Shown here: positions 58,934-63,048 of the stretch, in pieces | Layout of the letters: each line of letters begins with the position of its first letter | Numbering within the stretch: the first letter of the stretch is position 1 | Notes under the pieces: generated by a model | The model's database searches: none | What the model was told of the DNA's origin: nothing | The model's input: only the letters and a program-made list of their open reading frames with translations | DNA from: Escherichia phage APCEc01 | Length of the DNA stretch: 64,000 nt | Reading direction: 5' to 3' (one strand) | Sequence record: NC_029091.1 | Made by a program: the position numbers and the translations under genes

Positions 58934-59296
58934 ATGAAAGCATATCAAATTCTTGAAGGCACACACAAAGGCACTATTTATTTTGAAGACGGTACTCAAG
59001 CCCGGATTATTGTCTCTAAGACTTTTAAAGAAGACGCTATTGTAGACCCGGAAATTTTCTACGGTTTGCATGCCCGTGAAATTGAAATTGAACATCACCC
59101 TAAAGTTAAAATTGAAGGTGGTCAACATCTGAACGTTAACGTTCTGCGTCGTGAAACTCTAGAAGATGCAGTTAAGCATCCAGAAAAATATCCGCAGCTG
59201 ACCATCCGTGTATCTGGTTATGCAGTTCGCTTTAACTCTCTGACTCCGGAACAGCAGCGCGACGTTATCGCTCGCACCTTTACTGAGAGTCTATAA
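58934..59296 (+). CDS. grcA: autonomous glycyl radical cofactor (GrcA/YfiD-like; T4 Y06I-type)
   Basis: 120 aa; C-terminal glycyl radical motif [27 protein letters not shown]; C-terminal ~57 aa match E. coli GrcA as recalled; host-like codon usage in 3' half. Confidence 0.8.
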
Positions 59297-59995: not shown

Positions 59996-60044
59996 GTTTA
60001 CTTCTCCTCTAGTTGTGTTACTATAGACCTGTCAACTAGAGGAG
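59996..60044 (+). promoter_or_regulatory. early promoter (GTTTAC, 17 nt, TACTAT) inside perfect 12-bp inverted repeat that includes the SD
   Basis: CTCCTCTAGTTG at 60004-60015 and CAACTAGAGGAG at 60033-60044. Confidence 0.6.
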
Positions 60045-60052
60045 AAATCAAA

Positions 60053-60511
60053 ATGACTATCAATTCAGACGTTTTTATCCGCCGTAATAAACTCCGTCGA
60101 ATCTTTGAAACGGAGTTCCGCAAAATAAATGCCGGTATAAAAGATGCTGCAAAGTCTCTTGGACTACCAGGCTTTCATATCAAGTATTCTCAACATCTCT
60201 TAGATCGTGCCATCCAGAGAGAAATAGATGAGAATTACGTTTTTGAATTATTTCATAAAGTAAAAAATCATGTTAAAGAAGTTGCAGAATTTTTATCAAT
60301 GCCGGCACGTCCAGATGTTGATGAAGATTTTGTCGAAGGTGTCGAATATCGCCCAGGCCGTTTAGAAATAACTGATGGAAATCTTTGGTTAGGACTTACA
60401 GTTTGTCGCGAAAATCCGGCATTCAAAATGAAGACTCTTCAATGCAGAATGGCTATTATTAACAATAAACGACTACCAGGAAAAGCTTCTAAAGCAGTGA
60501 TTAAAATCTAG
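60053..60511 (+). CDS. regB: RegB site-specific endoribonuclease
   Basis: 152 aa; MTINSDVFIRRNKLRR...KYSQHLLDRAIQREIDE...LQCRMAIINNKRLPGKASKAVIK matches T4 RegB as recalled. Confidence 0.9.
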   Translation: MTINSDVFIRRNKLRRIFETEFRKINAGIKDAAKSLGLPGFHIKYSQHLLDRAIQREIDENYVFELFHKVKNHVKEVAEFLSMPARPDVDEDFVEGVEYRPGRLEITDGNLWLGLTVCRENPAFKMKTLQCRMAIINNKRLPGKASKAVIKI

Positions 60512-60519
60512 AGGTAAAC

Positions 60520-61062
60520 ATGAGAAAAGCACTACTCGCTGGTCTATTTGCTCTTTCATTATCAGCACATAGCTCCGAGCATACTTTTAGTAATGTCCAA
60601 CTCGATAACTTGAATTATGCTTATCAGTTTGGGGAACAGTTTTCTAAGGATGGAAAATTTAAAACGCATGAAAATATGCATAAGAAAGGACTTGGATACA
60701 TAATGGCCGCAATACTATGGCAGGAATCATCTGCCGGTATTAATCTTAAAGATAAGAAAGGTCACCATGCGTATGGAATGTTCCAAAATTATCTACCGAC
60801 AATGAGGGCAAGAATTAACCAGCTTGGTTATAATATGACTGATGCCCAAATTAAGAAAATGCTATCTAAGCGGTCTAATTCAGCCAGATGGGCTTATATC
60901 GAATTTTCTTATTGGTTAAATATACATAACGGGGATATAAGAAAAGCTATATCCTCATATAATGCGGGATGGAAGACAAGTGCCGGAAGTAAATATGCTT
61001 CTGAAGTCCTAGAAAAGGCTAATTACCTTAAATCAAATAAACTACTGGAAATAAAAGAATGA
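60520..61062 (+). CDS. secreted lytic transglycosylase-like protein (SLT domain)
   Basis: signal peptide MRKALLAGLFALSLSAHS; SLT motifs E-S (WQESSAG), AYGMFQ, YNAG. Confidence 0.6.
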   Translation: MRKALLAGLFALSLSAHSSEHTFSNVQLDNLNYAYQFGEQFSKDGKFKTHENMHKKGLGYIMAAILWQESSAGINLKDKKGHHAYGMFQNYLPTMRARINQLGYNMTDAQIKKMLSKRSNSARWAYIEFSYWLNIHNGDIRKAISSYNAGWKTSAGSKYASEVLEKANYLKSNKLLEIKE

Positions 61063-61406
61063 CCAAAATGTTGGCTTTAATAGTTGGCTTGGTTTCATTT
61101 AACGCTCTTGCTAATACTACATATACTGATGTAACGGAGTATACAAACAGAACGGCGTCTGATTACTGTGGTAAAAGTCAAGAGTGTAAAGTAGATTTTT
61201 CACAAAAATTGTTATATGCGTATAAAGACGGAGAAAAAGACGGGGCGTCTAGTAGGTTCAAGGCGTCTACCTTAATTAAAAGATACTATAAAAAATGGCA
61301 AATATTAGAATGCTCGGTGGCGGAACCTAAAGATAAGGCAGCATGCAATTCTATGGTGGACCGTCTAGTTGACTCTTATAATAGAGGACTTGCAGCAAGT
61401 GATTAA
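61059..61406 (+). CDS. secreted small Cys-containing protein (115 aa)
   Basis: signal peptide MTKMLALIVGLVSFNALA; four Cys residues. Confidence 0.5.
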   Translation: MTKMLALIVGLVSFNALANTTYTDVTEYTNRTASDYCGKSQECKVDFSQKLLYAYKDGEKDGASSRFKASTLIKRYYKKWQILECSVAEPKDKAACNSMVDRLVDSYNRGLAASD

Positions 61407-61866
61407 AAACTATATCAAGGGCGATATTGTCGCCCTGTTTTCTAAAGGTAATAATATTGCTCATGGGTGTAATTGTTTTCATACAATGGGCGCGGGTGTG
61501 GCAGGACAATTAGCAAAGGCTTATCCAAAAATTCTGGAAGCCGATAAACTTCAAACCGAATTCGGAGACGAGTCTAAACTCGGGACTTATTCGGTTTATG
61601 AAAAATATTTTAAGACCCATAAAGCTTATTGCTTTAATCTTTATACACAGTTTGAGCCGGGACCTAATTTTGAGTACTCTGCTTTAATGAATTGTATAAT
61701 AGAATTAAATGAATTCGGAAAGAATAAGATAATAAAGCCTGTAATTTATATGCCAAGAATTGGTGCAGGTATTGGTGGTGGAAACTGGGATGTCATCGAA
61801 GAGATTTTAGATACGTATTCTACTAAACTAGAAATTGTGATTGTTGATTGGGAACCGTTATTATGA
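61399..61866 (+). CDS. macrodomain-like protein (ADP-ribose binding/processing fold), probable GTG start
   Basis: motifs GNNIAHGCNCFHTMGAGVAGQL and PRIGAGIGGGNWDVIEEIL resemble macrodomain N-x(6)-GGGV and P-x-I-S-T-G-x-x-G signatures; no in-frame ATG before the first motif. Confidence 0.5.
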   Translation: MIKNYIKGDIVALFSKGNNIAHGCNCFHTMGAGVAGQLAKAYPKILEADKLQTEFGDESKLGTYSVYEKYFKTHKAYCFNLYTQFEPGPNFEYSALMNCIIELNEFGKNKIIKPVIYMPRIGAGIGGGNWDVIEEILDTYSTKLEIVIVDWEPLL

Positions 61867-62075
61867 ATATACATTATCCACATCCATATGACCCAAAGAA
61901 TAAGGCAGTAATTATTCGTCAATGGGAACGCATTTGTCGTACCAAATGTCCAATTAATAGTCCACATGATGTAGATAAAGACTACATCGGAACATTCGTT
62001 GAATATACCTTTATTGATAAGAAAGGCCGTAAACAACATGTAGAAGAATATTGCTTAAAGGTGACATGGCTATGA
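61863..62075 (+). CDS. hypothetical protein (70 aa)
   Basis: ATG overlapping upstream stop (ATGA). Confidence 0.45.
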   Translation: MNIHYPHPYDPKNKAVIIRQWERICRTKCPINSPHDVDKDYIGTFVEYTFIDKKGRKQHVEEYCLKVTWL

Positions 62076-62278
62076 GTCAAACAAAAATTCTTACAGGTGC
62101 TAAATGCGAAAAATGCGAATGGCCTGTAGTTTTTGCTTTATGCAATGACGAAATGGCTTGTGATTTTGATTATTGGTGTTACTGTTCGAACAAAGGTTGT
62201 AGCAATCATAAAGGTGAAGGGTTTTACTCAGGATTTTACCCTTACCCAGATTTCGTTAAAGAAGGTGAACCTAAATGA
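62066..62278 (+). CDS. Cys-rich small protein, putative zinc ribbon (70 aa)
   Basis: C-x2-C (CEKCEW) and further Cys pairs; start 62066 or 62072. Confidence 0.45.
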   Translation: MAMSQTKILTGAKCEKCEWPVVFALCNDEMACDFDYWCYCSNKGCSNHKGEGFYSGFYPYPDFVKEGEPK

Positions 62279-62457
62279 AATTGACTAAAGAAGAGAAAAC
62301 TAAACTGTTCGAACTTATCCATGACCTATTGGATGAGCAAGCAGCCACCAATGCGTACGATGAATATGCTCCTTTGACGGACGAAGAATATCAAGCATTG
62401 TTGGAATCATTTGACAGGAAAGAACAAGAACTCATTGACTATGTGAATTCACTATAA
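62275..62457 (+). CDS. hypothetical acidic protein (60 aa)
   Basis: ATGA overlap. Confidence 0.45.
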   Translation: MKLTKEEKTKLFELIHDLLDEQAATNAYDEYAPLTDEEYQALLESFDRKEQELIDYVNSL

Positions 62458-62466
62458 GGGACTCTT

Positions 62467-63048
62467 ATGGCTAGTTTAATTTTTACCTATGCCGCTATGA
62501 ACGCTGGTAAGTCTGCTTCATTACTTACTGCTGCACATAACTATAAAGAACGTGGCATGGGTGTATTAGTTCTTAAACCGGCTATTGATACTCGCGATTC
62601 AAAAGGTGAAATAGTCTCTCGTATTGGTATTCGTCAGGATGCCAATATAATTACAAAAGACATGGATATCTTTGAATTTTATAAATGGGCTGCAGCACAA
62701 AAGGATATTCATTGTGTATTTGTTGACGAAGCTCAGTTCTTAACTACTGAAAAGGTGTATCAACTTAGTCGTATTGTTGACGTGTACAATGTGCCGGTAA
62801 TGGCATATGGACTACGAACAGATTTTAAAGGTAATCTATTTGAAGGTTCTCAAGCATTAATGGCTATTGCCGATAAGCTTGTTGAACTTAAAGGTGTCTG
62901 TCATTGTGGTAAAAAGGCCACAATGGTAGCTAGAGTCACGGAAGACGGACTTCCAATTACAGATGGCAGTCAAATTGAAATTGGTGATACCGATAGATAT
63001 GTGTCATTATGCCGGAAGCATTGGAATGATTTGACAGGGTTGTTATAA
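62467..63048 (+). CDS. tk: thymidine kinase
   Basis: 193 aa; P-loop AAMNAGKS, Walker B FVDEAQF, C-terminal zinc ribbon CHCGKK...C; matches T4 Tk as recalled. Confidence 0.92.
   Translation: MASLIFTYAAMNAGKSASLLTAAHNYKERGMGVLVLKPAIDTRDSKGEIVSRIGIRQDANIITKDMDIFEFYKWAAAQKDIHCVFVDEAQFLTTEKVYQLSRIVDVYNVPVMAYGLRTDFKGNLFEGSQALMAIADKLVELKGVCHCGKKATMVARVTEDGLPITDGSQIEIGDTDRYVSLCRKHWNDLTGLL

Follow-up and report, generated by a model that had tools for sequence, protein, structure and literature searches.

What does the small macrodomain gene that lies among the early genes of Escherichia phage APCEc01 do for the phage? We analysed 64,000 nucleotides (nt) of record NC_029091.1 (hereafter the window), in which an open reading frame (ORF) at 61399-61866 on the plus strand had been predicted, from the letters alone, to encode a macrodomain-like protein that could reverse ADP-ribosylation or process NAD-derived molecules. 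Judged by its sequence and neighbours, this gene is the Mosigvirus (RB69-group) orthologue of T4 tk.4, which has been renamed adfM for 'anti-DarT factor, macrodomain', and its product is probably an eraser of DarT2 marks that counters the host defence DarTG2. The gene had been annotated before, a name and a phenotype are on record for its T4 orthologue, and its function is largely known. Here we establish its fold, family, orthology, start codon and active-site equivalences, and weigh what these say about the reaction that the protein carries out.

Orthology and fold

The 468-nt ORF (translation VIKNYIKGDIVALFSKGNNIAHGCNCFHTMGAGVAGQL...PRIGAGIGGGNWDVIEEIL...EPLL, then the stop codon) encodes a single-domain macrodomain protein of 155 residues and 17.4 kDa, with a computed isoelectric point (pI) of 5.6 and a net charge of -3. 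Between positions 60000 and 63100 the window shares 99.8% identity with Shigella phage JK45, a member of Mosigvirus (RB69 group) in the NCBI taxonomy; JK45 has a gene of the same bounds annotated 'macro domain-containing protein'. The gene of Escherichia phage vB_EcoM_G53 is 100% identical to the ORF in DNA and is labelled 'macro domain protein', and other records have 'phosphatase' or 'Poa1p-like family protein'; the novelty implied by the original prediction is thus lost to existing annotation of identical genes. T4 Tk.4/AdfM shares 85.2% amino acid identity with the window protein over 155 residues (81% at the nucleotide level) and its gene likewise lies between vs and tk.3; the two proteins agree at every family-invariant residue, the 23 substitutions all lying at other positions. 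The order regB, vs.1, vs, tk.4, tk.3, tk.2, tk.1, tk is found in the window, as the predicted location in a regB-tk early region required. Moreover, gene order around tk.4 is identical in JK45, T4, teqdroes, UP19 and JSE, and synteny with regB, vs.1 and tk extends to 42 of the 80 best IMG/VR loci, at identities as low as 46%.

Macrodomain identity, for which the original prediction had two motifs to go on, is confirmed by the agreement of Pfam, homology and structure, none of which assigns a different fold. Both motifs are present in the translation, far beyond chance. Motif 1, GNNIAHGCNCFHTMGAGVAGQL (residues 17-38; 61447-61512, plus strand), is the strand-loop-helix that shapes the ADP-ribose pocket and holds H22 (61462-61464), N25 (61471-61473) and a GxG loop, and motif 2, PRIGAGIGGGNWDVIEEIL (residues 119-137; 61753-61809, plus strand), forms the second glycine-rich diphosphate-binding loop and the next helix. 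The Pfam Macro profile (PF01661, gathering cut-off 22 bits) matches with 28.4 bits (E = 1.7e-6), residues 22-136 aligning to positions 2-117 of the 118 in the profile; for phrog_335 the match has E = 1.3e-66, and a homologue is encoded in 2,798 phage records (tblastn). A model built with AlphaFold2 (AF2) from a 58-sequence alignment (mean predicted local distance difference test, pLDDT, 95.6; predicted template modelling score, pTM, 0.91) has the alpha/beta/alpha fold in three layers, with a mixed sheet at the centre and an ADP-ribose cleft lined by two glycine-rich loops. Its top Foldseek matches in the PDB are TARG1 (E = 3e-10), Poa1p (E = 1e-9; query-normalized TM-score, TMq, 0.80), BT1257 and DarG macrodomains. 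In structure and sequence, the window protein is nearer to ALC1-like members than to MacroD-, viral nsP3-, PARG- or macroH2A-type domains, and it joins TARG1, DarG, SCO6735/BT1257 and Poa1p in the ALC1-like class, as this class is named in the SCO6735 paper (PMC9411070).

DarG models are the sole matches in the PADLOC (36 bits, E = 1.2e-9) and NCBIfam (33.3 bits) libraries. The PADLOC model is matched only at positions 4-145 of 329, and the window protein ends after the macrodomain, without the DarT-binding C-terminal domain. Similarly, the NCBIfam DarG equivalog NF048014 is matched only at positions 4-146 of 338, its score of 33.3 bits lying far below the cut-off of 250.

Start codon

It had been predicted that the frame lacks an ATG ahead of motif 1 and hence starts at a GTG or TTG overlapping the upstream gene, and both points hold. 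After a stop, the frame is open from 61369; TTG 61369, TTG 61390 and GTG 61399 are the only starts ahead of motif 1, and the earliest in-frame ATG, at 61486, lies within that motif. The GTG (61399-61401, plus strand) shares an 8-nt overlap, GTGATTAA, with the stop of vs (TAA, 61404-61406), whereas T4 has an ATG start and a 4-nt overlap. In T4_ev151 and teqdroes, this ATG stands exactly where GTG 61399 aligns (...ACTAG ATG ATT GTA AAA TAT ATC AAG GGC... versus ...AGCAA GTG ATT AAA AAC TAT ATC AAG GGC... in the window), and in T4 the codon directly before it is an in-frame TAG. Megablast alignments with Tequatrovirus genes start at query base 2, as expected if base 1 differs by A/G, and the first strand of the AF2 model begins at residue 2. 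From these comparisons, GTG 61399 is the start of tk.4.

TTG 61369, TTG 61390 and ATG 61486 are rejected as starts: T4 has a stop codon directly before its aligned ATG. TTG 61390 would in addition stand 1 nt from a putative Shine-Dalgarno sequence, AGAGGA (61383-61388, plus strand), which we read from the sequence 10 nt upstream of the GTG and which has GAGGA at the equivalent place in T4; a start at ATG 61486 would cost the protein strands 1-2 and half of motif 1. The overlap between the vs stop and the tk.4 start makes translational coupling of the two genes likely.

A glutamine at the place of the catalytic lysine

To compare active sites, residue equivalences were taken from family-profile alignments to reference sequences (derived from PDB alignments, with PhiKZ gp104 taken from the PhiKZ paper), and conservation was counted among 121 homologues retrieved with HMMER, down to about 40% identity. 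The 80 IMG/VR loci were retrieved by family motifs, so residue conservation there is not independent evidence. The stretch N80-L-Y-T-Q84 aligns with L-I-T-K84 of TARG1, F-P-T-K80 of the DarG proteins of Thermus aquaticus (Taq) and Mycobacterium tuberculosis (Mtb) and F-P-T-K78 of PhiKZ gp104, which puts Gln84 (codon 61648-61650, plus strand, in NLYTQ) at the position of the catalytic Lys in TARG1, DarG and PhiKZ AdfM. This residue is Gln in all 121 homologues. D49, G62, N80, Y82 and G33 are likewise each present in 121 of 121, C26 in 120, N25 in 119 and H22 in 118; P119, I121, G122 and G124 are each found in 119, the other two being alignment gaps, and are invariant in the 58-sequence alignment. 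N25 aligns with N22 of Taq DarG, N23 of PhiKZ AdfM and N27 of SCO6735, and H22 with H23 of Poa1p and H24 of SCO6735. Motif 2 aligns with PRIGCGL of TARG1, SCO6735 and BT1257 and with PPLGAGNGG of DarG, and the second catalytic residue of TARG1, D125, corresponds to G126 in the window protein.

With Gln invariant at this position, the Lys-dependent catalysis of DarG and TARG1 is not available to the window protein; mutation of that Lys abolishes rescue from DarT (PMC8501950), and a lysine-based, DarG-like mechanism is rejected. It does not follow that the change from Lys to Gln leaves an inactive 'reader'; we rejected this as a default, since SCO6735 is highly active with Gln and Adpp, discussed below, is catalytic with Gln. 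The counterpart of Q84 in SCO6735 is Q85, and BT1257 too has Gln there. SCO6735 removes thymidine-linked ADP-ribose (dT-ADPr) faster than DarG or TARG1 and rescues DarT toxicity, its Q85A and Q85E mutants are inactive, and its authors propose a water-mediated mechanism with the Gln positioning the substrate (PMC9411070). Catalysis in the window protein would most likely be of this SCO6735-like kind, water-mediated and Gln-positioned, with N25 and H22 lining the site.

The likeness to these Gln-type enzymes goes only so far. SCO6735 (PDB 5E3B) and BT1257 (PDB 2FG1/2AFC) are 23-29% identical to the window protein, BT1257 being its best PDB match and 54% identical to SCO6735. Both have an insertion of 5-6 residues after the Gln, a longer 'mobile loop' that the window protein lacks; in SCO6735 this loop is five residues longer than that of TARG1 and DarG (PMC9411070). 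Both are strongly basic (pI 8.9-9.9; SCO6735 has a net charge of +7 and a pI of 9.9), a strongly electropositive DNA groove being a trait of this subclass, in contrast to the mildly acidic window protein at -3 and 5.6; K34 of SCO6735 is replaced by A32, and K89 falls in the missing loop. Human TARG1/OARD1 (PDB 4J5R) has a loop of equal length between the T-K/Q position and the next Tyr, but its K84/D125 dyad becomes Q84/G126, and yeast Poa1p (PDB 6LFQ) shares H-x-C-N-C but carries Ser in place of Q84; these two proteins are eukaryotic and differ in their biology. The DarG macrodomain (PDB 5M31/5M3E/5M3I) differs in its FPTK with the catalytic Lys and in the C-terminal DarT-binding domain.

It is also evident that the name AdfM covers two macrodomain lineages when the sequences are compared, a Gln type in T-even phages and a Lys type in PhiKZ. 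PhiKZ gp104, also named AdfM, strips DarT2-installed ADP-ribose from DNA in vitro, and its N23A mutant is impaired (Cell Rep 2026, PMC13309987). It is a true DarG type with Lys (E = 9e-25 to Mtb DarG), aligns with the window protein over 23 residues only (E = 6e-4), and scores lowest of all references on the Tk.4 profile (31.6 bits). Since gp104 is of the DarG type and matches Tk.4 weakly, its biochemistry is not simply transferable to Tk.4.

Relationship to Adpp

A Poa1p-like macrodomain, Adpp, was reported in 15% of 859 NARP1 operons in an older and smaller phage set; it turns ADP-ribose-1''-phosphate (ADPR-1''-phosphate), which is made by the RES-type NAD+ phosphorylase defence aRES, into ADP-ribose (ADPR), from which NARP1 rebuilds NAD+, as demonstrated with the purified protein of Vibrio phage Gary (bioRxiv 10.64898/2026.01.28.702374, January 2026). 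We used gp179 of Vibrio phage Kronos, 94% identical to Gary Adpp, as a proxy. Its identity to the window protein is 37% (E = 6e-23), it has the shared signature H-x-C-N-C, D49, K-L-G, N-x-Y-x-Q, Gln included, and with either of the two as tblastn query essentially the same 2,700-2,800 or so phage records are retrieved. Gary Adpp itself is likewise about 37% identical to the window protein, is a single domain of about 155-160 residues, and shares H-x-C-N-C, D49, K-L-G, N-x-Y-x-Q and IGxGxxGGxW. In the window protein the Adpp/Poa1p signature residues H22, C24, N25 and C26 are all present, and T29 (Thr in 74 of 121 homologues) aligns with S30 of Poa1p. On sequence grounds, T-even AdfM and Adpp are members of the same protein family with a lysine-free, Gln-type site, and Adpp is the closest characterised relative after T4 Tk.4, closer than any proven DNA hydrolase.

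The two differ in surroundings and in detail. Adpp of Gary sits between Adps (Prs-like) and Namat (Nampt-like), whereas the window gene adjoins vs and tk.3; in Adpp seven extra residues follow the Gln, and its demonstrated substrate is a small molecule, not DNA. We found family genes between Prs-like and Nampt-like genes in two unrelated phages, Acinetobacter phage vB_AbaM_P1 (locus L008:950-4474) and Kronos (locus L009:3129-6135), at 36-37% identity to the window protein, with gene overlaps of 1 or 4 nt and RNA ligase genes nearby. In the 64-kb window, tblastn found no Prs-like or Nampt-like genes (best E = 2.8-5.0). Similarly, NARP1 genes are absent beside tk.4 in all 42 T-even-type loci, and a Nampt-like neighbour occurs at 1 of the 80 best IMG/VR loci. 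Because the homologue occurs in 2,798 records while a macrodomain gene is present in only 15% of NARP1 operons, most family members appear to be NARP1-independent, the comparison of these two sets being a rough one. Lys or Arg at position 32 was considered as a marker of NARP1 linkage (Arg in Kronos, Lys in vB_AbaM_P1) and was dropped, as the one Nampt-linked IMG/VR locus has Gly there.

A probable eraser of DarT2 marks

DarT2, the toxin of the host toxin-antitoxin defence DarTG2, blocks replication by attaching ADP-ribose to single-stranded phage DNA, at the thymidines of TNTC motifs. The macrodomain, expressed early as one link in the overlapping and probably coupled chain regB, vs.1, vs, tk.4, tk.3, tk.2, tk.1, would hold the ADP-ribose moiety in the cleft of its two glycine-rich loops and cleave at C1'' of the distal ribose, so that the adduct is removed and the normal base restored. 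That the window protein acts in this way against DarTG2 we consider probable, with real room left for other readings. We infer its catalysis, DNA-linked ADP-ribose as its substrate and the T4-like behaviour of a protein 85% identical to that of T4.

The evidence from T4 is genetic. A transposon library of T4 grown on a DarTG2-expressing host (HIDEN-SEQ) gave tk.4 as the single significant match, and a clean tk.4 knock-out sensitises T4 to DarTG2, upon which the gene was renamed adfM; the authors note the likeness to the DarG macrodomain and write that ADP-ribose removal from DNA 'seems likely', that is, they infer it (bioRxiv 10.1101/2025.11.20.689424, November 2025). T4 without adfA and adfN stays fully resistant to DarTG2, which predicted a further factor (PMC11825919), and the tk.4/adfM result fills this gap. 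The Tk.4 protein has also been detected in the T2 proteome (bioRxiv 10.64898/2026.06.19.733364). Of the uses suggested in the original prediction, reversal of host-defence ADP-ribosylation agrees with the DarTG2 phenotype of the T4 orthologue. Taken together, the syntenic T4 orthologue with its phenotype, the absence of NARP1 partners and the precedent for dT-ADPr removal by a Gln-type enzyme favour DarT2 reversal.

Several observations weigh against this. Tk.4-type proteins are known from T4 genetics in an unreviewed preprint and not from enzymology on ADP-ribosylated DNA, and the DarTG2 phenotype belongs to the T4 protein, the Mosigvirus version being credited with it by orthology only. The nearest biochemically characterised relative is the phosphatase Adpp rather than a DNA hydrolase, and the match to Kronos gp179 (E = 6e-23) is much stronger than those to SCO6735 (E = 7e-11) and DarG (E = 3e-9). 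The 5-6 residues by which the 'mobile loop' is longer in SCO6735, and which its authors tie to DNA clamping, are missing from the window protein, as is the DarT-binding C-terminal domain of DarG. Its pI of 5.6 compares with 8.5-9.9 in SCO6735, DarG and TARG1; PhiKZ gp104, a proven DNA hydrolase, is as acidic as Tk.4, and charge may be a poor discriminator between DNA and small-molecule substrates.

Other explanations

Tk.4 and Adpp may form one bifunctional family, in which a Gln-type, lysine-free site would cut any substituent at C1'' of ADP-ribose. The same protein of about 155 residues would then clear DarT2 marks from DNA and also dephosphorylate the ADPR-1''-phosphate of RES-type NADases, the genomic context (T-even early cluster or NARP1 operon) setting which activity is selected. 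Such a single promiscuous site is plausible because both reactions break the bond at C1'' of the distal ribose, and we regard the idea as possible though on balance doubtful. Another use named in the original prediction, the processing of NAD-derived molecules, can be retained in part: the relative of about 37% identity, Adpp, does act on ADPR-1''-phosphate, but this has been shown for Adpp of Gary only.

Less probable, and in our view unlikely, is that the window protein works mainly as an ADPR-1''-phosphate phosphatase, as Adpp and Poa1p do and as 'phosphatase' in database records implies, with the DarTG2 phenotype a side activity or an indirect effect; aRES defences or RNA 2'-phosphotransferase reactions would then be the source of ADPR-1''-phosphate. 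However, ADPR is useful to a phage only with NARP1 (Adps and Namat), and neither gene is found in the window or beside tk.4 in the 42 T-even-type loci. A phosphatase would also leave the sensitivity of tk.4-less T4 to a DNA-modifying toxin unexplained, and Poa1p has Ser rather than Gln at the Q84 position. Nor do phosphatase and DNA hydrolase activities exclude each other, as both act at C1''.

T-even phages encode ADP-ribosyltransferases (e.g. alt), and ADP-ribose might be removed from proteins or RNA, be it adducts made by Alt, ModA and ModB or other host-defence adducts. Alt and Mod modify arginine. TARG1 and SCO6735 do hydrolyse Glu/Asp-linked protein ADP-ribose as well (PMC9411070); nevertheless, what has been reported for the ALC1-like relatives tested is activity on Glu/Asp-linked protein ADP-ribose and dT-linked DNA ADP-ribose, not on arginine. 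TARG1 depends on its K84/D125 dyad for activity on proteins (PMC9411070), in place of which the window protein has Q84 and G126, and in the reported T4 screens tk.4 was conditionally needed only under DarTG2 (bioRxiv 10.1101/2025.11.20.689424). We therefore hold this explanation to be quite improbable, and reversal of the phage's own ADP-ribosyltransferase marks, also suggested for the enzyme, finds no support. Finally, neutralization of DarT2 without catalysis, by toxin inhibition or by sequestration of product or substrate, as a stoichiometric inhibitor or ADP-ribose reader, would accord with the missing canonical Lys and with the finding that the dead mutants SCO6735 Q85A, DarG K80A and TARG1 K84A still inhibit DarT in vitro, SCO6735 most strongly (PMC9411070), but it is very improbable, given that the active-site residues are invariant across hosts with very different DarT, a pattern of an enzyme and not of a toxin-specific binder, that the DarT-binding domain is absent (33 bits against the cut-off of 250), and that the related Adpp is catalytic.

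Gene neighbourhood and RNA elements

On the plus strand, tk.4 is preceded by regB (60053-60511; Pfam REGB_T4, E = 3.5e-69), vs.1 (60520-61062; weak SLT-like match) and vs (61059-61406), of the valyl-tRNA synthetase modifier family (phrog_1256, E = 1.8e-35; annotated in JK45, T4 and teqdroes). It is followed by tk.3 (61863-62075; DUF7202, Pfam E = 1.6e-38), whose ATG overlaps the tk.4 stop in ATGA, tk.2 (62072-62278; phage zinc-binding domain), tk.1 (62275-62457; DUF7438) and tk, thymidine kinase (62467-63048). From vs.1 through tk.1, consecutive genes overlap by 4-8 nt, an arrangement that suggests translational coupling. The minus-strand ORFs around tk.4 are short, lie inside plus-strand genes and are unannotated in related phages.

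The gene upstream of tk.4 had been taken for a secreted protein gene; it does encode a signal-peptide-like N-terminus, but the gene is vs. The N-terminus of Vs is of the classic Sec-type signal-like form, MTKMLALIVGLVSFNALA followed by N at the break, with MTKILVLCIGLISFSALA followed by D in T4 (locus L002:1163-1504), and the protein has four Cys; the N-terminus of Vs.1 is also signal-like. A secretion signal is odd in Vs, a factor said to bind a cytoplasmic synthetase. Further upstream, the 120-residue ORF at 58934-59296 (plus strand), labelled 'pyruvate formate-lyase' in JK45, ends with a glycyl-radical-type motif, RVSGYAV. We take it to resemble the 'spare part' protein of T-even phages, an autonomous glycyl-radical protein and relative of E. 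coli GrcA/YfiD.

A GC-rich hairpin with an 8-bp stem, AGGGCGAT-ATT-GTCGCCCT (61418-61436, plus strand), lies 19 nt into the tk.4 coding region and is followed by GUUUUCU; it emerged from a scan for terminator-like structures and folds with a free energy of about -13 kcal/mol. It is kept in T4, in Dhakavirus UP19 and, with T-A in place of a T.G pair, in Krischvirus JSE, and is absent from a Klebsiella phage. Where it is retained, the 71 nt around it fold with z-scores between -1.2 and -2.4. The U-rich run after the hairpin (61437-61444) is predicted to pair with the Shine-Dalgarno region of tk.4 (61382-61389), UUUUCU (61438-61443) facing AGAGGA (61383-61388), so that the start codon is enclosed; this fold has z = -2.4 in the window and -1.8 in T4. 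On weak evidence, the hairpin may be a translational-coupling or stability element. A role as terminator is weak, as it lies inside a conserved coding stretch (KGDIVAL), has a poor U-tract and is surrounded by folds only modestly better than those of shuffled sequence.

Within tk.4 there is also a MotA-box-like TGCTTTA (61680-61686, plus strand), with TAGAAT (61700-61705) 13 nt later, a site that phage SA79RD annotates as a T4-type middle promoter. From this candidate promoter, tk.3 and the genes beyond it would be expressed independently of tk.4.

In T2, Hfq RIL-seq (RNA interaction by ligation and sequencing) captured tk.4 mRNA with the host small RNA (sRNA) ArcZ and other sRNAs, and the level of Tk.4 protein was unchanged in a delta-arcZ host (bioRxiv 10.64898/2026.06.19.733364). 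The same paper mislabels tk.4 as 'putative thymidine kinase'. Laboratory T4 records include OL964745.1 (H34) and MZ375356.1 (H125), at 152-160 kb, and in one deposited T4 record the tk.4 match comes in two pieces with two macro-domain coding sequences, probably by a frameshift. A T4 subline of 1972 carries a Ser36Gly polymorphism in tk.4 (PMC8573959). The split record and Ser36Gly are consistent with a gene that the phage can do without on laboratory hosts free of defences.

Significance for T-even phages and their hosts

DarTG stops phages by ADP-ribosylating phage DNA, and phage erasers decide the outcome. What is added here is that the T-even AdfM is set apart from the AdfM of PhiKZ and joined with Adpp in one family. 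If the two activities do reside in one family, AdfM (November 2025) and Adpp (January 2026), anti-defence factors that were named independently, would merge. The same reading would make the protein a short-loop, acidic, Gln-type DNA de-ADP-ribosylase, mechanistically unlike DarG, TARG1 and SCO6735. A Tk.4/AdfM eraser in RB69-type phages would make their host range among DarTG2-positive E. coli easier to predict, a matter of relevance to the composition of phage-therapy cocktails.

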